A DNA stretch of 64,000 bases from Cytophagaceae bacterium UBA7467. GTDB lineage: Bacteria; Bacteroidota; Bacteroidia; Cytophagales; Spirosomataceae. The stretch is from assembly GCA_002479785.1 (NCBI GenBank), contig DLPD01000013.1, positions 16,726 through 80,725 on the forward strand, in the 5' to 3' direction. The notes below the pieces were generated by a model. It ran no database searches. It saw nothing but the letters and a program-made list of their open reading frames with translations, and was not told where the DNA came from. Below are positions 11,415 to 21,022 of this stretch, in pieces (position 1 is the stretch's first letter; every line of letters begins with the position of its first letter). The translations under genes and the position numbers were made by a program.

Positions 11415-11895
11415 ACAAAGAAGTTTGATATTTCAACGAAAGCGTATCCCCCAGCTCTATTGCCGTCTTAAAATCTAAACAGGCATCTTCGATTAAACCT
11501 AAATGCATCAAATTTATTCCCCTGTTATAATAGGTTTCAGCATAATAGGGATAGCGAATAATCGATTTAGAGAAATCCCGAATGGCCCCTTTATCGTTTC
11601 CGAGTTTGGATTTGAAATAGCCCCGGTAGAAATAGTAATCTGCATTGGTGGAATCTAGTCGAATGGCTTTGGTTAAGTCAGAAATGGCACCTGAATATTC
11701 CTCCATCGATCCTCGAGAGAAAGCTCTTGCGAAGTAAATTTCGGGGTTTTTGGGGTCTTTTGTTAAAGCCACCGAAAAATTATACGTTGCTTCCTTGTAT
11801 TTTTCTTGCTGAATTTGGCTTAATCCAGCGGCATATTGCAACATACAGCTGCTCAAGAAAAAGAGGGCAATAAGGGAGGAAAATAAACGGATCAT
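11404..11895 (-). CDS. TPR-repeat lipoprotein
   Basis: Lipobox LSSC; repeats YFARA/YFYRG/YYNRG; terminal ACLDFKTAIELG. Confidence 0.85.
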   Translation of the reverse strand: MIRLFSSLIALFFLSSCMLQYAAGLSQIQQEKYKEATYNFSVALTKDPKNPEIYFARAFSRGSMEEYSGAISDLTKAIRLDSTNADYYFYRGYFKSKLGNDKGAIRDFSKSIIRYPYYAETYYNRGINLMHLGLIEDACLDFKTAIELGDTLSLKYQTSLCKE

Positions 11896-14333
11896 TTAAA
11901 AGTAACGATGGTGATTCCCGCACCGCCACGGTCTGCATGTTCGTCAGTTATGTTTTTAATTTCTCGGTATCGACGTAATTGTTCACGAATCAGGCTTCGA
12001 AGAATTCCGTCGCCTTTTCCATGTAAAATTTGAACTTCTGGAACGCCTAACAAGAGACAATCGTTGATATATTGGTCTAAAATAACATAAACTTCCTCGC
12101 CACGCTTCCCTCTAATATCCAGTTTGAGCTGAAATTGAGCCATGCGATCATTGATGTCGATTCCGCGAAGTGGAGCTGTACTTTTCTTGGGTTGTTTAGG
12201 CGGGACGATTTTTTGGAGGCGATTCAATTTGATTGTACTGCGAATGGCTCCTAAAGAAATGACCGCGTCTTTCCCTTTAAGTTCCATGATTTGTCCCAAA
12301 GTAGGTTCCTCGCCACTCCCTTTGATCACCACCCAATCGCCCAAAGCGATAGGGGAGTTAGCGTAAACAATTCCGGGAGTTTCTGAAACAACCTTCAAAG
12401 GAGCTTCGGTTTTTAATTCTTTCTGTACAAATTTATCTAGATTAGCGCGTAACTCTTTCGTCTTTTCCTTGTCAGCCTCTTTCTCACGAATCTGTCTGAT
12501 GGTTTGTTCGATGCGTTGATTTGCCTCTTGAATGATTTTTTTTGCTTCTGCTTTCGCCGCGTTTAACATCGCCTTCTGCTCTTCTTGCAAGTGATTCTTC
12601 AGGCGCTCATAGTTTTCCTTAATCGATTGGGCTTGCTCATTAGCGAGAGCTAAACTTGCATTTTTACTCTCCCAAATCTGCTTCTCCGTCTCTGTTTCAA
12701 GCAATAACTTGTCAAAATCCACCTGTTTTTTGCCTAGTTTCTTGCGTGCATTTTCAATGATGGCTTTAGGTAATCCAATTTTCTGGGCAATTTCAAAGGC
12801 AAAAGAGCTTCCCGGTTTTCCCATATCCAAAATAAATTGGGGTTCTAAGTGCTCGGTATCGTAGCGCATCGCGGCATTGAATAGGCCTTTTTGGCGATCT
12901 GCTAAGCTTTTTAAGTTACCAAAGTGCGTGTTTATCGCTCCATAGCACCCTTTATCAGCTAGTTTCTCTAAGATGGATTCTGCGATTGCTCCTCCTAAAG
13001 AGGGCTCAGTCCCGGTGCCAAATTCATCTACAAGAATCAAGGTCTTTTCGTTCACATGCTGTAAGAAATACCGCATATTACTTAAATGGGAGGAATAGGT
13101 ACTTAATTCGTTTTCTAAATTTTGTTCATCTCCCATATCTAAGAAGAGTTGGGAGAAGAAGCCCATGGTGCTGCCTTCTGCTAAGGGTACTAAACAGCCA
13201 GATTGAAATAAGAATTGCAATAAGCCAACAGTACTCAGCGTTACGGATTTACCACCTGCATTTGGACCCGAAACGACCATTATTCTTCGATCGTCTTCTA
13301 ATCGAATGCTTAGGGGTTTAATCTTTTTTCCAATTTTTTCGAGCGATTTCTCCAATAAGGGATGGCGCGCATCGGTCCAATTGACAATCGGTTTATCTTG
13401 GATAAACGTCGGTTTTATGGCTTGGTGAGCGCTTGCCCAAAGGGCTTTGGCCCGAATAAAATCAATCAAACCTAGCCAGGAAAAGGCATGCCCTAAAAAA
13501 GGCGTTAAAGGTCGAATGCGATCTGATAGTTTCGATAAAATTTGGATGATTTCGCGACGTTCTGCTGACTCTAAAGACTTAATTTCATTATTCATCGCTA
13601 GCGCATCCGCGGGCTCTAAAAAAACCGTTTTCCCCGTATCTGATTCATCCTGAACGAAACCTTTAATCTTCCTTTTGTGCTCAGTCGCTAAAGGAATCAC
13701 CATTCGGCCATTGCGTAAGGTCAAAGAAAAATCCTTGCTCACCCAACCTTCTTTGTAGGCCTGGCTTAAATACGAATCGAGTTTTTTTCGTAAACCTTGC
13801 TCCTCTGCTATCCGTTTGCGTCGTAAATCACCTAAAGCAGGGGAGGCTGTTTCCTTGATTTGACCATTTACATCAAATATGCGATCTAAATCTTGAATGA
13901 TTGGAATGATTTGCCTGAAATCACCATCGCTTTCAGCTCCTTTAGCCAGAAAATGCTGGGTGATTTTATGTATTTCAGGGTATTCCGAAGAGTCAATTGC
14001 CGCAAAAAAGCGGATGGTTTCATACAAAACCGTTAATGCCCTTTGCCAATCTCTCCATTCATCTGCTGATAGATAATGGCCTTCCAGCTGCAGTGGATTT
14101 AGATAAGAACGTAAATCGTAGTAATCTGTCTGGGGAAATTCGCCGCCATGTTCACCTAAAACACGGCTCATTTCATCGACTTGTTCCACCCATTGTTTGA
14201 CCAAAGGGAACCGGTCCGAAAACCGCATTTTATCGGCATATTCCAGTCCCATCTGACTTAAACAAAGTTGCTTAATTTCCTCTTTTACCTGGCTGAAGCC
14301 CAGTTTTTCGGCAAGATTTACAGGGTAATTCAT
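11892..14333 (-). CDS. mutS2: MutS2 ATPase with C-terminal Smr domain
   Basis: Walker A SGPNAGGKS, LSTYSSH, LVDEFGTGTEP, GKPGSSFAFEIA, coiled coil, Smr LDIRG...ILHGKGDGILR. Confidence 0.92.
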   Translation of the reverse strand: MNYPVNLAEKLGFSQVKEEIKQLCLSQMGLEYADKMRFSDRFPLVKQWVEQVDEMSRVLGEHGGEFPQTDYYDLRSYLNPLQLEGHYLSADEWRDWQRALTVLYETIRFFAAIDSSEYPEIHKITQHFLAKGAESDGDFRQIIPIIQDLDRIFDVNGQIKETASPALGDLRRKRIAEEQGLRKKLDSYLSQAYKEGWVSKDFSLTLRNGRMVIPLATEHKRKIKGFVQDESDTGKTVFLEPADALAMNNEIKSLESAERREIIQILSKLSDRIRPLTPFLGHAFSWLGLIDFIRAKALWASAHQAIKPTFIQDKPIVNWTDARHPLLEKSLEKIGKKIKPLSIRLEDDRRIMVVSGPNAGGKSVTLSTVGLLQFLFQSGCLVPLAEGSTMGFFSQLFLDMGDEQNLENELSTYSSHLSNMRYFLQHVNEKTLILVDEFGTGTEPSLGGAIAESILEKLADKGCYGAINTHFGNLKSLADRQKGLFNAAMRYDTEHLEPQFILDMGKPGSSFAFEIAQKIGLPKAIIENARKKLGKKQVDFDKLLLETETEKQIWESKNASLALANEQAQSIKENYERLKNHLQEEQKAMLNAAKAEAKKIIQEANQRIEQTIRQIREKEADKEKTKELRANLDKFVQKELKTEAPLKVVSETPGIVYANSPIALGDWVVIKGSGEEPTLGQIMELKGKDAVISLGAIRSTIKLNRLQKIVPPKQPKKSTAPLRGIDINDRMAQFQLKLDIRGKRGEEVYVILDQYINDCLLLGVPEVQILHGKGDGILRSLIREQLRRYREIKNITDEHADRGGAGITIVTFK

Positions 14334-15250
14334 AGAGAAAAGTGTGCCTTTATTTTATCGAGCAAAACCTCGTTGATTTTATAATAACTTTCTGTCGTCC
14401 AACCCGCTACGTGTGGACTGAAAATAGTCGCCGGATAAGCAGCTATTTCGGCGAAAAGCGCTTTTTCAACCGGTGACCAAGTAGTCAATTTTTCATTCGG
14501 TAGCACATCCAAGGCCAAGCCCCTGATTTTGCCTGTGCGTAAACCATATAACAAAGGTTCCAGTGGAGCTATCGGCCCACGGGAACTATTGATCAAAATA
14601 ATGGGCTTCCTGAATGAGTTTAAAAACTCCATGGAAACTAATCCGCGTGTCTCGGATGTCAAAGGAATGTGTAAACTCAACAGGTCAGCTTGTTCGTAAA
14701 TCTGCTCCATCGTAGCTGGGAAATCGGCTGAAGGAGCGTATTTATCATAGGCTAAAATGCTCATACCGAAACAAGAAAGGCGTGAAGCAACCGCTTTACC
14801 CATGTTACCGTAACCGATTATCCCCAAGGTCTTACCTTTCAGTTCAAATCCTCTATTACCTTCCCGTTCCCACAAACCTTGACGAACTTCGGTATCAGAA
14901 GTATGGAGTTTGTGTGCTAGGGATAATAATTGACCGATAACATGTTCTGCCACTGCATCTGAATTACCCTCATTAGCGGAAAAAACCGCGATTCCCCGAG
15001 ATAGGCAGGCATCTACATCTACTAAGTCGAGTCCTGCGCCTGCTCGCGCGATGAAAGTCAAAGAGGTGTCTTTCAGTATTTCAGCTGTGATTTTAAATTT
15101 GCTTCGAACGACTAAACCCCCATATGTAGGTAAAACCGATGTGAATTCAGCGAGAGTTAAATCGGTACGCGTTTCCACCACGAATCCCAGATTCGTTAGC
15201 CCTTCTGCCATGGAAGGATGAACCTCGTCGACGATTAACACTTTACGCAT
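14330..15250 (-). CDS. D-isomer-specific 2-hydroxyacid dehydrogenase (SerA-like, no ACT domain)
   Basis: ARAGAGLD, GIIGYGNMG, NSSRG, LDVLPNE, SPHVAG. Confidence 0.85.
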   Translation of the reverse strand: MRKVLIVDEVHPSMAEGLTNLGFVVETRTDLTLAEFTSVLPTYGGLVVRSKFKITAEILKDTSLTFIARAGAGLDLVDVDACLSRGIAVFSANEGNSDAVAEHVIGQLLSLAHKLHTSDTEVRQGLWEREGNRGFELKGKTLGIIGYGNMGKAVASRLSCFGMSILAYDKYAPSADFPATMEQIYEQADLLSLHIPLTSETRGLVSMEFLNSFRKPIILINSSRGPIAPLEPLLYGLRTGKIRGLALDVLPNEKLTTWSPVEKALFAEIAAYPATIFSPHVAGWTTESYYKINEVLLDKIKAHFSL

Positions 15251-16241
15251 TCATTCGGTTTTTTACGAGATCTAAAGCTAAAAATAAAGCCTGAAGGAAT
15301 GAACCTGGGTCAGCTACATTTTGACCCGCAATATCATATGCTGTACCATGATCTGGTGAAGTACGAATAACGGGTAAGCCTGCAGTAAAGTTTACACCAG
15401 AGTCAAAGGCGATGTATTTGAAAGGAATTAATCCTTGGTCATGGTACATCCCTAAAACGCCATCAAATTCCTTGAATTGCGCTTTTCCGAAGAATCCATC
15501 CGCTGGGTAAGGACCAAAAACCAAGTTTCCTTTCGACCTAAATTCATCTACAACGGGTTGAATAATTTCCAATTCCTCTTGACCTAATAGTCCTGCCTCT
15601 CCTGCGTGTGGATTTAAACCTAATACGGCTAATCGAGGTTTGTCTACAGAGAAATCCTCCTTTAAACTCTTTAAGAATAAAGTGATTTTTGTACGAAGTA
15701 AATCGGCGTTTAAGGCCTTAGAAACCTCTAATAGAGGAATATGGCCCGTTGCTACGCCCATTCTAAAACCATCAGAAACCATCATCATTAGAGACGATTT
15801 AGCTTCGAAACGATCGGTTAAATATTCCGTATGACCCGGGAATGTAAAGTCTTCAGATTGGATATTGTGTTTATTGATAGGAGCCGTAACCAGTGCAGAA
15901 ATCAATCCACGATCTAAGTCATTTGCGGCTTTTTCTAAACAATCAAAGGCTGCTTTTCCCGCTTCTTTCGTTTCTTTTCCTGGTTCTACTACCGTCGATG
16001 TGTCGTCCCAACAGTTGATGACAAAGCTTTCACCCGATTTTGCCTCGGATGCTTCTTTAATTACCGCGATGGACCATTCCTTTAATTCGAATTTTTGGCG
16101 GTAAAAATCCAATACCTTGGCAGAACCGTAAATCACAGGTGTACACCACTTTAGCAAGCGTGGGCTGGCTAAGGATTTCAAGATTACTTCGGGTCCGATT
16201 CCGTTGTAATCTCCTAACGTGATACCGATGATGGGTTTCAT
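15243..16241 (-). CDS. pdxA: 4-hydroxythreonine-4-phosphate dehydrogenase
   Basis: GDYNGIGPE, TAPINK, GHTEYL, GLNPHAGE, MYHDQG, RTSPDHGTAYDIAG; ATG at 16241. Confidence 0.95.
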   Translation of the reverse strand: MKPIIGITLGDYNGIGPEVILKSLASPRLLKWCTPVIYGSAKVLDFYRQKFELKEWSIAVIKEASEAKSGESFVINCWDDTSTVVEPGKETKEAGKAAFDCLEKAANDLDRGLISALVTAPINKHNIQSEDFTFPGHTEYLTDRFEAKSSLMMMVSDGFRMGVATGHIPLLEVSKALNADLLRTKITLFLKSLKEDFSVDKPRLAVLGLNPHAGEAGLLGQEELEIIQPVVDEFRSKGNLVFGPYPADGFFGKAQFKEFDGVLGMYHDQGLIPFKYIAFDSGVNFTAGLPVIRTSPDHGTAYDIAGQNVADPGSFLQALFLALDLVKNRMNA

Positions 16242-16427
16242 AAAAAGCAATTTTTTGTTCGACCTGCAAGTTAAGAAAAATCGCTAGAAGGCGGTAGAAT
16301 TATTTTTCTTGGTAACGAACCTAATAAATATAGTATTTTTTTAAGTTTTACCAAATAAAATGCGGTATTTGATGCGAATTTCACAATATATTTAGCATTT
16401 TTGTTAGAATCTCCTATTAAACTGATT

Positions 16428-19400
16428 ATGCCAAAATCATACGTCAAAAAAATCTCCAGTTTATTAATTGCTAATCGTGGCGAGATCGCTATTCGAATCA
16501 TGCGCGCTGCATCCGAATTAGGAATTCGCACCGTTGCTGTTTACACGTTCGAAGATCGCTACTCTCTGCACCGTTACAAGGCGGACGAAGCTTACCAAAT
16601 CGGGAAAGACGACGAACCTTTAAAGCCCTATCTGGATATTGAAGGTTTGATTTCTTTATGTAAATCGAAGAAAATCGATGCTATCCACCCAGGATATGGT
16701 TTCTTGTCTGAAAACGTGGTTTTAGCGACTCGTTGCAGAGAAGAGGGAATCGTTTTTGTGGGCCCTTCACCGGAAGCAATGAATGCCTTGGGAGATAAGG
16801 TAGCTGCGAAAGTGGCTGCTTTGAAGGCCAATGTGCCCATGATTGAGGATTCAAAAGGGGATTTATCGGATTATTCATTGGCCCTATCAGAAGCAAGACG
16901 TATTAAATTTCCTGTGATGGTGAAAGCGGCTGCCGGAGGTGGTGGTCGAGGAATGCGCGTGGTGAGAACGGAAGAGGAATTAGAAAAGGCCTATCAAGAG
17001 GCGAAGAATGAAGCGAAAAACGCTTTTGGAGATGAAACCTTGTTTATCGAAAAATTCATTGACGACCCTAAGCACATCGAAGTTCAATTATTAGGAGATC
17101 AGCACGGAAATTTAGTGCATTTGTATGAGCGCGATTGTTCGGTGCAAAGACGTTTCCAGAAAGTGGTTGAAATTGCTCCTTCTTTCGGATTAAAGGAGGA
17201 AACCAAGCAAAAATTATATGCTTACGCGCTTTCTATAGGTAAAGCAGTGAATTATTACAACGCGGGAACCGTGGAGTTTTTGGTCGATAAAGATGAAAAT
17301 ATCTACTTTATTGAAGTTAATCCGCGGATCCAAGTAGAACATACTATTACGGAGGAGGTGACAGGGATCGATATTGTCCGCACTCAGATCCTAATTGCAC
17401 AAAATTACAAGTTGTCGGATCCCGGTATTTTCATTCAAAACCAAGCGGAAATCCCGTTAAAAGGCTTTGCGATTCAATGCCGTATTACAACGGAAGACCC
17501 AGCGAATGGATTTAAGCCGGATTTTGGTACCATTATCGCCTACAGAAATGCCGCCGGTTTTGGTATCCGTTTGGACGAAGGTTCCTCCTATCCAGGGGTG
17601 AAAATTTCGCCGTATTTCGATTCGATGTTAGTGAAGGTGTCTGCTAAAGGCCGCACCCTCCGCGGTGCGTCCGAGCGCTTGAACCGCGCGCTGACTGAAT
17701 TCCGAATCCGTGGTGTAAAAACCAATATCCCGTTCTTACGCAACGTAATCACGCACCCTGTCTTCCAAGAAGGCCATTGTACGGTTCCATTTATTGCGAA
17801 TCACCCGGAATTATTTAACTTCAAACCTACCCGTGATCGCTCTACGAAGGCGATTCGCTACCTAGGAGAAGTCATCGTTAACGGAAATCCGGATGTAAAA
17901 GTGAAGCCAACGGCTCCCTTCCGCACTCCGATCATCCCTTACGTGGATCCGATGGCTGAATATCCGAAAGGCAACAAGCAGTTATTAACTGAAATGGGTC
18001 CAGAAAAATTTGCGAAGCACATCCGTGATGCGAAGCAAATTTATTTTACGGATACAACCTTCAGGGACGGACATCAATCGCTTTTAGCGACTCGTGTTCG
18101 TACCCAAGATATGCTAGCCGTTGCGGACGGTTTTGCAAAATCCTTCCCTCAATTGTTCTCTATGGAGGTTTGGGGAGGGGCCACGTTTGATGTGGCGATG
18201 CGTTTCTTACAAGAATCTCCTTGGAAACGCTTGCAGGAGTTTCGCGAGGCAATGCCTAACATGCTGTTGCAAATGCTTTTCCGCGGTTCAAACGCGGTGG
18301 GATATTCCGCTTACCCAGATAATTTGATCGAAAAATTCGTAGAAAAATCCTCCGAAGCAGGAGTCGATGTATTCCGAATTTTTGATTCCTTGAACTGGAT
18401 CGATGCGATGAAAGTATCGATCAAAGCGGTTCGGGAACGCACTCCGGGCCTTGCTGAGGCATCTATTTGCTATACGGGTGACGTCTTCACGAACGAGAAA
18501 TACAATCTGCAATACTACGTGGATATGGCACGTCAGCTGGAAGATGCCGGCGCTCACCTGTTGTGTATAAAAGATATGGCAGGACTTTTACGCCCTTTTC
18601 AAGCGGAGAAATTAGTTGCCGAATTAAAGAAAGCGGTTGATTTACCGGTTCACTTGCATACCCACGATACGGCCTCTGTTCAATCAGCGACCTATTTAAA
18701 GGCCATTGAGGCTGGAGTAGATATTGTAGATGGCGCGTTAGGTGCGATGTCAGGTTTGACATCTCAGCCTAACTTGAACTCGTTAGTAGCCATGATGCAG
18801 GGTCATCCGAAAGCATCCGATTTGAATTTAGACTTACTAAACGAATACTCGAATTATTGGGAAGCAGTTCGTACGATGTATGCGCCGTTTGAATCCGAAT
18901 TAAAGGCAGGAACGGCTGAGGTATACAATAATGAGATACCGGGCGGACAATACACGAACTTACGCGGTCAAGCGATTGCCTTAGGAGTAGGCGATAAGTT
19001 TGAACAATTAAAACATAATTATTCGGAGGCAAATACACTTTTTGGCGATATCGTTAAAGTGACCCCATCCTCGAAAGTAGTAGGGGATATGGCAATCTTT
19101 ATGACAGCCAATTCCTTAACGGCGGAGGATGTATATGCCAAAGGTGCTACCTTGTCTTTCCCTGAATCGGTGAAAGACTTCTTCAAAGGTGGATTAGGTC
19201 AGCCATACCAAGGCTTCCCAAAACAGTTGCAGGAGATCATCTTAAAAGGAGAACACGCGATCGAAGGTCGTCCAAATGATCATTTAGCTCCGATTGATTT
19301 CGACGCTGATTTCAAGTCATTTACTAAGAAATTTCCAGAGGCTGAAGACGGTTTCTTCGATTACTTATCCTACAAAATGTACCCGAAAGTATACGAAGAT

Positions 19401-20288
19401 TATTACAAGAATTCGGCCTTATTTGGTGAATTATCCGCCCTTCCAACTCCGGCCTTTTTCTACGGCCTGAAACAGGATGAGGAGATTATGATTACGATTG
19501 AGCCGGGTAAAACAATAATTGTTAAGTTCTTATATATGTCTGAACCTGATGAGTCAGGTTTACGTAATGTAACATTTGAATTGAATGGCCAAGCTCGACG
19601 CATTAAGATTTTAGATAAAAACGTCAAAGTCGAACGTGCGCAACACGCGAAAGCAAAAGTAAAAGGCGACATCGGAGCACCATTGCAAGGACGATTGTCC
19701 CGTATTTTGGTGAAACCGGGCGATGAGGTGAAATTAAATGCACCACTGTATGTGATTGAGGCGATGAAGATGGAATCGATCGTTTCCGCGCCATTTGAGG
19801 GAATTGTGGGAAATGTGATATTAACCGAAGGAACGGTAGTGGAGCAAGAGGATTTGGTATTGACCTTAGAAGAAGCTAAACTGCCAGAGCCAAACGTGGA
19901 AGAATACTTATTCGTGTACGGAACTTTGCGTCGTGACTGTGGTAACGATTTACACCGCTTAATTGCCCGAAATTCAGACTACATCGGTATGGCGACTTAC
20001 CAAGGTCAAATGTACCAAGTAGCTGATTATCCGGGTATTATTCCGTCAAATGATGCGAAAGATCAAGTAATAGGTGAATTGTATTTATTGTCCAATACGA
20101 TTAAATTATTGAACGTGTTAGACGAGTATGAGGAATACAATGCCGACATGCCTGCAGAAAGCCTATTCGTCCGGGAGCAAGTGAAAGTAAGCTTGAAAGG
20201 CAAGGAAATCGAAACGTATGCGTATTTATATAATAAGAAGATCGATCCTAAAACACGCATAGCATCTGGTGATTATGTGAAAGGCTAA
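16428..20288 (+). CDS. pyc: Pyruvate carboxylase with C-terminal gamma-glutamylcyclotransferase-like domain
   Basis: BC domain (ANRGEIA, HPGYGFLSEN, RDCSVQRR), CT domain (DTTFRDGHQSL, WGGATFD, IKDMAG, HLHTH, KVTPSSK), BCCP (EAMKME, Lys at 19767), then FVYGTLR...YPG...GELY...LDEYE. Confidence 0.95.
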   Translation: MPKSYVKKISSLLIANRGEIAIRIMRAASELGIRTVAVYTFEDRYSLHRYKADEAYQIGKDDEPLKPYLDIEGLISLCKSKKIDAIHPGYGFLSENVVLATRCREEGIVFVGPSPEAMNALGDKVAAKVAALKANVPMIEDSKGDLSDYSLALSEARRIKFPVMVKAAAGGGGRGMRVVRTEEELEKAYQEAKNEAKNAFGDETLFIEKFIDDPKHIEVQLLGDQHGNLVHLYERDCSVQRRFQKVVEIAPSFGLKEETKQKLYAYALSIGKAVNYYNAGTVEFLVDKDENIYFIEVNPRIQVEHTITEEVTGIDIVRTQILIAQNYKLSDPGIFIQNQAEIPLKGFAIQCRITTEDPANGFKPDFGTIIAYRNAAGFGIRLDEGSSYPGVKISPYFDSMLVKVSAKGRTLRGASERLNRALTEFRIRGVKTNIPFLRNVITHPVFQEGHCTVPFIANHPELFNFKPTRDRSTKAIRYLGEVIVNGNPDVKVKPTAPFRTPIIPYVDPMAEYPKGNKQLLTEMGPEKFAKHIRDAKQIYFTDTTFRDGHQSLLATRVRTQDMLAVADGFAKSFPQLFSMEVWGGATFDVAMRFLQESPWKRLQEFREAMPNMLLQMLFRGSNAVGYSAYPDNLIEKFVEKSSEAGVDVFRIFDSLNWIDAMKVSIKAVRERTPGLAEASICYTGDVFTNEKYNLQYYVDMARQLEDAGAHLLCIKDMAGLLRPFQAEKLVAELKKAVDLPVHLHTHDTASVQSATYLKAIEAGVDIVDGALGAMSGLTSQPNLNSLVAMMQGHPKASDLNLDLLNEYSNYWEAVRTMYAPFESELKAGTAEVYNNEIPGGQYTNLRGQAIALGVGDKFEQLKHNYSEANTLFGDIVKVTPSSKVVGDMAIFMTANSLTAEDVYAKGATLSFPESVKDFFKGGLGQPYQGFPKQLQEIILKGEHAIEGRPNDHLAPIDFDADFKSFTKKFPEAEDGFFDYLSYKMYPKVYEDYYKNSALFGELSALPTPAFFYGLKQDEEIMITIEPGKTIIVKFLYMSEPDESGLRNVTFELNGQARRIKILDKNVKVERAQHAKAKVKGDIGAPLQGRLSRILVKPGDEVKLNAPLYVIEAMKMESIVSAPFEGIVGNVILTEGTVVEQEDLVLTLEEAKLPEPNVEEYLFVYGTLRRDCGNDLHRLIARNSDYIGMATYQGQMYQVADYPGIIPSNDAKDQVIGELYLLSNTIKLLNVLDEYEEYNADMPAESLFVREQVKVSLKGKEIETYAYLYNKKIDPKTRIASGDYVKG

Positions 20289-21022
20289 TGAAAAAAATCG
20301 CCCTTTTTTGTTTGTTCTCCATCGCCCTACAAGCGCAAAGTCCGCTATTGAAGGCGCATGCTCATAATGATTACGAACACGAAAGGCCCTTTTTTGATGC
20401 TTTTCAATTAGGTTTCGGTTCTATTGAGGCAGACGTTTATGCGGTGAATGGCGAATTATTAGTGGGGCACGAACGCGCCCACCTAAGCCTGAATCGGAAT
20501 TTAAAGGATTTGTATATCGATCCGATTATTCGCGTTCTGAAAGCCAATAAAGAAGGTAATTTCCATCAATTATTGATTGATTCAAAGACATCAGCTGATT
20601 CTACTTTGCCACTTATTATTGCCGCTTTGAAGCCCCATGCGGAAATTATTCAACAAAAAGGTTTTCGGATAGTTATTTCAGGCAATCGACCTACACCTGC
20701 TAAGTACATTGAGTCACCCGCTTGGATTACGTTTGATGGGCGCTCAGATGAGCGTTTTCCTACTTCTAAAGTAGTGTTAGAAAGTGAATCGATGTTGAAG
20801 TTTGGCTTTTGGAATGGTCAAGGTCCTATCCCTGCCACTTTAAAAGAAAAACTCAAAAACTACGTGGATCAAGTTCATGCAAATGGCCGAAAAGTACGTC
20901 TGTGGGCTACCCCAGATTCGCTTTTAGGCTACCAAGCCTTGTTAGCTATTGGAGTAGATTACATCGGGACCGATAAGCTCAGTCTTTTAGCAGATTATTT
21001 GAAATTCAGCGAGAGTAAATAA
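20288..21022 (+). CDS. Secreted GDPD/PLC-like phosphodiesterase (AIM6-like)
   Basis: Signal peptide; HAHNDY, SIEADV, LVGH, LLIDSK, KVRLWATPD, GVDYIGTD. Confidence 0.7.
   Translation: MKKIALFCLFSIALQAQSPLLKAHAHNDYEHERPFFDAFQLGFGSIEADVYAVNGELLVGHERAHLSLNRNLKDLYIDPIIRVLKANKEGNFHQLLIDSKTSADSTLPLIIAALKPHAEIIQQKGFRIVISGNRPTPAKYIESPAWITFDGRSDERFPTSKVVLESESMLKFGFWNGQGPIPATLKEKLKNYVDQVHANGRKVRLWATPDSLLGYQALLAIGVDYIGTDKLSLLADYLKFSESK

Follow-up and report, generated by a model that had tools for sequence, protein, structure and literature searches.

A GGACT-like domain fused to the carrier end of pyruvate carboxylase in a lineage of Spirosomataceae

In single-chain pyruvate carboxylase (PC), biotin carboxylase (BC), carboxyltransferase (CT) and biotin carboxyl carrier protein (BCCP) domains follow one another on one polypeptide, and the BCCP swings between distant active sites. 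To our knowledge, every characterised single-chain PC ends at the BCCP, and both the solved enzymes and the unfused relatives of the gene described here agree with this rule. The gene examined in this study departs from it. It lies in a stretch of 64,000 nucleotides (the window) from Cytophagaceae bacterium UBA7467 (contig DLPD01000013.1), where a single frame on the + strand (16428-20288) begins with an ATG at 16428, ends with a stop codon at 20286-20288, and on direct reading has no internal stop over its 1286 amino acids (aa). Pfam and NCBIfam place in this frame a whole PC, followed by a domain that resembles the gamma-glutamyl-amine-splitting enzyme GGACT.

Up to the BCCP, the encoded protein resembles the alpha4 single-chain PCs of S. 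aureus (3bg5), L. monocytogenes (4qsh) and human (7wtb) in both its BC-CT-BCCP order and its AMKM biotin site. The BC (ATP-grasp) domain occupies residues 9-457 (16452-17798), where Pfam finds Biotin_carb_N, CPSase_L_D2 and Biotin_carb_C (PF00289, PF02786 and PF02785). It is followed in canonical order by a CT region of HMGL-like and PYC_OADA type at residues ~536-1033 (18033-19526; PF00682, PF02436 and the NCBIfam PC equivalog), and by the BCCP (Biotin_lipoyl, PF00364; residues 1082-1147, 19671-19868), which in Foldseek superposes on that of solved PCs at a root-mean-square deviation of ~1 Å. The biotin-accepting lysine, K1114, was read directly in the sequence EAMKME, and its codon is at 19767-19769. 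The NCBIfam PC equivalog NF009554 scored 1677.6 bits against a cut-off of 965, with the other score of the NF009554/TIGR01235 test at 1618 bits against a cut-off of 1114. The equivalog covers residues 7-1148 over almost the full length of the model (positions 3-1146 of 1147), which shows that the PC is complete and that the chain after residue 1148 is an addition. In known PCs, as in the unfused ones of this family, the chain stops at the BCCP, whereas here 139 residues more are present. These comprise a Pro/Glu-rich linker of 12 residues (EEAKLPEPNVEE; 19869-19904), delimited by alignment and given a low predicted local distance difference test score (pLDDT) in an AlphaFold2 (AF2) model, and a GGACT/AIG2-like domain of 127 aa (residues 1160-1286, 19905-20285; PF06094, AF2 and Foldseek), called the tail below. 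A sequence-only reading of the window had proposed a full BC-CT-BCCP enzyme with its biotin lysine at 19767 and, from 19869 to 19904, a Pro/Glu-rich linker leading into a domain of ~127 aa; Pfam and direct reading agree with it on each of these points.

The tail has the same fold, the same YG(T/S)L motif and the same helix-end Glu as E. coli YtfP (1xhs), B. subtilis YkqA (2qik, a BtrG homologue) and mammalian GGACT (3jub, 1vkb). However, these are free proteins of 113-285 aa, whereas the tail ends a carboxylase chain of 1286 aa and is without the C-terminal extension that bears Tyr143 in GGACT. BtrG, a member of PF06094, splits gamma-glutamyl-amines into 5-oxoproline and free amine, and the substrate of GGACT is gamma-glutamyl-epsilon-lysine. 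The reaction catalysed by GGACT likewise converts gamma-glutamyl-amines to 5-oxoproline and the free amine (PMC2954230). The active site of the GGCT family is formed by YG(S/T)L together with a Glu, Glu82 in GGACT, which ends the helix that delimits the cavity (PMC2954230, PMC12569754).

The nearest architectural analogue of the PC-GGACT fusion is urea amidolyase (K. lactis, 5i8i), in which a GGCT-fold domain, the C domain of allophanate hydrolase (AH), is also combined with a biotin-dependent carboxylase by gene fusion. In Foldseek, the tail matched K. lactis AH (4ist, 4iss) and urea amidolyase (5i8i) with E values of 5e-4 to 1e-3 and template modelling (TM) scores of 0.58-0.64, but when the PDB was searched with a profile made from 145 sequences of the tail family, AH chains were absent from the matches at E values up to 1. 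The resemblance of the AH C domain to this fold, mentioned in the sequence-only reading, holds for the fold and does not extend to the sequence. The AH C domain of urea amidolyase belongs to another sequence family and lies N-terminal to the carboxylase, not on the BCCP. In addition, it acts in sequence on the product of the carboxylase, and no comparable pathway logic is visible for PC and oxaloacetate. A GGCT-fold module attached to many unrelated cargo proteins is also found in part 2 of the Paulinella chromatophore transit peptide (crTPpart2; 9i08, 9i09). That module, however, is N-terminal, eukaryotic, and has its catalytic Glu replaced, whereas the Glu of the tail is invariant (PMC12569754).

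Fold and active site of the tail

When the whole protein was scanned, PF06094 (GGACT, AIG2-like) matched residues 1161-1284 with an E value of 1.7e-21 and 77.5 bits, against a gathering score of 22.8, and no NCBIfam model covered the tail. Scanned alone, the tail scored 82.8 bits against PF06094 and covered profile positions 1-119 of 120. The AF2 model of the tail, made from 145 aligned sequences, had a pLDDT of 91.4 and a predicted TM score (pTM) of 0.85, and showed the GGCT fold, a beta-barrel beside which a helix forms the cavity. Its best Foldseek matches were PH0828, YkqA, mouse and human GGACT, plant AIG2-like proteins and human GGCT, with a probability of 1.00 to 1v30, 2qik, 1vkb, 3jub and 2i5t, and TM scores of 0.6-0.73. 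The 145-sequence profile, searched against the PDB, retrieved YtfP (E 1e-16), YkqA (3e-14) and GGACT (6e-8). In a representative library, the YtfP/YkqA-like branch accounted for 4551 clusters with E values no higher than 1e-3.

Direct reading found FVYGTL, YPG, GELY, LDEYE and YAYLY in the tail. The YGTL substrate-binding motif, identified in alignments by its published definition (PMC2954230, PMC12569754), is formed by Y1164-L1167 (19917-19928), on the first strand and loop. E1235, the Glu of LDEYE (20130-20132), closes the cavity helix on its C-terminal side, directly after helix 69-79 of the AF2 tail model, and in the profile alignment it coincides with the Glu of LDDFE in 1vkb, which is the catalytic Glu82 of GGACT. 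Across the 145 fused and standalone sequences, G1165, L1167, G1216, D1232 and E1235 are invariant, and Y1164, T1166, P1202, R1249 and Y1266 are nearly so, the Y and T of YGTL being kept in at least 90% of them. The PF06094 scan, the profile and Foldseek bear out the earlier proposal of a real GGACT/AIG2-fold domain with a YGTL motif, and the alignment with Glu82, together with invariance in all 145 sequences, does the same for the Glu of LDEYE as a putative catalytic residue.

Integrity, spread and origin of the fusion

The stretch was found in metagenomes of 15 studies. Contigs of four studies (mine tailings, wastewater, and two freshwater/aquatic) that bridge 19860-19910 were retrieved from Logan, and at the junction they contained substitutions only, with no indel. 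Within the genus, the same open frame of ~1286 aa was present in all 26 genomes searched (24 and 1 relatives, and the window's own), the relatives being 79-98% identical over the BCCP and tail, and nine further genera of the family share the fused frame at 57-81% identity over the same region, the identity of the tails falling to ~44-49%. Several of the carrier genomes are complete or nearly so. Judged by the names of database hits, the organism of the window is an Aquirufa-like freshwater bacterium, the carriers include Aquirufa, Sandaracinomonas and Arcicella, and the family, Spirosomataceae, was assigned in the same way. Because independent contigs and dozens of independent assemblies exclude an assembly artefact, the fusion is no artefact, and since a whole clade keeps it, not all relatives encode two separate genes.

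Across the clade the linker varies in length by no more than one residue, and its sequence is conserved in the shallower branches only. No conserved internal start codon was found in the linker in the clade alignment, so the tail would be translated together with the PC. The sequence-only reading had taken the lack of an ATG in the linker as a sign of a real fusion rather than read-through, and knew of no described PC-GGCT fusion. The first view is upheld by the clade alignment, the contigs of four studies and the clade-wide open frame. With respect to the second, our literature search on PC-GGCT/AIG2 fusions and on links between AH and cyclotransferases found nothing relevant to the architecture. 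The fused proteins are already in public databases, where they are named plain "pyruvate carboxylase", and the architecture is therefore on record, although undescribed.

Neither the 200 additional phylum genomes that were searched nor 16 other families of the order yielded a fused form, and when longer proteins with a GGACT domain were searched, none among the biotin enzymes came from outside this lineage. A search of a representative library gave no match longer than 335 aa and is uninformative on the spread of the fusion, probably because such proteins are represented there by unfused PCs at 50% clustering.

In other genera of the family, and in other families of the order, the PCs are unfused proteins of 1145-1159 aa whose stop codon comes right after the BCCP. 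Each of these genomes has an unlinked gene of 129-159 aa that encodes a protein 30-44% identical to the tail, with the same motifs. By contrast, PF06094 had no match outside pyc in the genome of the window or in five fused genomes, all near-complete, from four genera. In a maximum-likelihood tree of the PC body, from which the tail had been removed, the 15 fused rows formed one clade nested among unfused family members (SH-aLRT, the Shimodaira-Hasegawa-like approximate likelihood ratio test, 100), so that one gain and no loss suffices; in a tree of the tails, the fused ones again formed one clade (SH-aLRT 99). As judged from these sequences, the fusion is of single origin: the family's own standalone GGACT-like gene appears to have been captured behind pyc, after which the fused copy was used exclusively. 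In a comparison of 40 full-length fused proteins, the tail diverged faster than any other part, with identities of 44-85% as compared with 73-96% for BC and CT. With tails down to ~44% identity, no loss in the sample, and catalytic residues kept, the fusion is, by the same sequence comparison, old.

Two candidate departures from the fused form were rejected. The first, a seeming loss of the YGTL region in G047, reflects a run of N in that assembly. The second, the 1199-bp metagenome scaffold L073, carries a standalone GGACT open reading frame (ORF; P0055, L073:166-609) very near to the tail of the fused protein P0048, and was not accepted as a fission event; because of its GC-rich, unrelated upstream end (argB-like by eye) and an aberrant C-terminus, it looks chimeric. 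The C-terminus of P0055 is without the conserved G-D of the GGDF/SGDF ending of the clade, as could arise in a chimera or a real fission. As a separate observation, the standalone GGACT gene of unfused genera recurrently ends an ispG (GcpE)-YjbR-TPR block (L015:874-4423; also L014, L017, L019, L021, L023 and L026).

Possible roles of the tail

From homology and conservation, we consider it probable that the gene encodes a bifunctional chain, in which an intact PC carries an autonomous and catalytically competent tail of the YtfP/YkqA/GGACT branch, with predicted gamma-glutamyl-amine cyclotransferase activity. Such a tail would release 5-oxoproline and a free amine from a substrate of gamma-glutamyl-amine type, would form an autonomous active site on the end of the BCCP distal to the biotin hairpin, and, co-expressed with PC, would be present at four copies per PC tetramer. 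PxpA (PF03746) of 5-oxoprolinase is present in the genome, although it is not specific, so 5-oxoproline could be recycled to glutamate. When the BCCP and tail were modelled together by AF2, both domains were confident, the linker was low, and no confident packing between domains was obtained (pTM 0.58). A two-copy complex prediction of the tail scored 0.06, against a mark of 0.42, and speaks neither for nor against a homodimer.

Several observations weigh against a tail that acts on its own as a cyclotransferase. The residue equivalent to Tyr88 of GGACT, aligned by eye, is Phe here and Tyr in many relatives. No function has been assigned to YtfP or YkqA, the closest relatives with solved structures, and the cyclotransferase label is therefore drawn from the family as a whole. 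The neighbours of the standalone genes (ispG-YjbR-TPR, response regulators, sigma factors and LysR) offer no metabolic clue. In addition, at 80-90% identity of the PC body, fused tails are 53-64% identical as compared with ~40% for standalone orthologues of the same family, in a small sample whose pairs are not independent. Eight positions are conserved in fused tails only; four of them (L1175, I1179, N1182 and S1183) cluster in or after the first helix, and the others are G1172, I1204, L1227 and E1236. The slower tail and the fused-only positions hint that the tail may not be fully autonomous, and its slower evolution after fusion would leave room for an added interaction with PC.

These last facts bear on the possibility that the tail is mainly regulatory or structural, which we regard as unlikely. 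In such a role it would recognise a ligand of the glutamate family or dock on PC, with catalysis secondary or lost, and by modulating the BCCP swing or the stability of the tetramer it would link anaplerosis to nitrogen/glutamate status. The sequence-only reading had already suggested that the tail may sense glutamyl metabolites and so connect anaplerosis with nitrogen status. The slower evolution after fusion at the same PC divergence, the placement of the fused-only positions, and a short linker of conserved length all favour such a role, for which the GGCT fold has non-enzymatic or assembly precedents in Paulinella crTPpart2 (PMC12569754) and in the AH domains that dimerise urea amidolyase. 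Slower tail, fused-only positions and kept linker length together fit an added constraint such as contact with PC, but they are also in keeping with the slow evolution that is general in a protein under high expression and strong constraint. Moreover, YG(T/S)L and the catalytic Glu are invariant over the fused clade, whereas crTPpart2 has its Glu replaced, and the fused copy is the sole PF06094 gene in these genomes, so the job of the standalone enzyme must still fall to the tail. A related proposal, that the tail is coupled to PC and either processes a gamma-glutamyl/carboxy compound at or near the active sites of the carboxylase or binds one and gates the BCCP swing, can be advanced only tentatively. 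If true, this coupling would be a new wiring of anaplerosis to glutamate and nitrogen metabolism, and would offer a first hint at what the large, orphan YtfP-like family does.

It is very unlikely that the fusion is neutral or an artefact, whether produced by read-through, by assembly error, or by a recent accidental loss of the stop codon that brought no function. The separate ORF close to a fused tail on the L073 scaffold would favour this explanation, as would the readiness with which GGACT domains elsewhere join several unrelated partners. However, L073 itself looks chimeric, the independent contigs and assemblies leave no room for an artefact, and the fusion is old, was never lost in the sample, and has its catalytic residues kept and its rate lowered. 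The linkage itself, as distinct from the domain, may still be neutral.

The weakest proposal, that the tail acts on PC or its chemistry by stripping gamma-glutamyl or other adducts from Lys residues such as the biotin-accepting one or by processing a carboxylated intermediate or product, has a forerunner in the sequence-only reading, which suggested the removal of adducts from Lys, possibly near the biotinyl-Lys, or action on a carboxylated product. It draws on the covalent tether to the BCCP, on gamma-glutamyl-epsilon-lysine as the GGACT substrate, and on a fold like that of the AH C domain. In urea amidolyase, where AH is fused to a biotin-dependent carboxylase, the N and C domains of AH act on what the carboxylase makes. 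The proposal is nevertheless most improbable. Many bacteria have standalone orthologues with the same active-site residues, encoded away from pyc and unconnected with biotin enzymes, and neither the phylum genomes nor the longer-protein search yielded another independent fusion to a biotin enzyme. Moreover, the tail is no relative of the AH C domain by sequence, and, from the general structure of BCCPs, it would join the end opposite the biotin hairpin.

Apart from the activity that the bifunctional chain may have, a folded domain of 14 kDa has long been kept on the BCCP arm in ~10 genera, indicating that the swinging arm tolerates cargo, and raising the question of whether the tail talks to the carboxylase. 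The fusion, which is surprising for the field of biotin-dependent carboxylases, also provides a Rosetta-stone link for the YtfP/YkqA-like branch, with its thousands of bacterial members, and a testable handle on this orphan enzyme family. Since cultured strains of Aquirufa, Sandaracinomonas and Arcicella carry the fused gene, the question can be tested directly.

Neighbouring genes and other fusions

Upstream of pyc and divergent from it, on the - strand (11892-16250), are pdxA, a D-2-hydroxyacid dehydrogenase gene and MutS2/Smr, and downstream are a xylose-isomerase-like TIM-barrel gene and a gene for an MFS (major facilitator superfamily) transporter. None of these neighbours has an evident link to the fusion.

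Outside the PC lineage, members of the GGACT subfamily are fused to a DCC1-like thiol-disulfide oxidoreductase, DUF4760, an M20/M28 peptidase and GNAT (P0064, P0134, P0169, P0220 and P0221). The variety of these partners suggests that the GGACT domain may be a generic amide-processing helper that fuses readily.

Directly behind the fused gene, at 20288-21022 (+), is an ORF of 244 aa with a signal-peptide-like N-terminus and a HAHNDYEH motif, for which neither Pfam nor NCBIfam gave a match. It keeps its place directly downstream of the fused gene in Aquirufa, in G085 and in genus g24, but not in the Arcicella-side subclade, and in the window its ATG overlaps the pyc stop codon by one base (TAATG).

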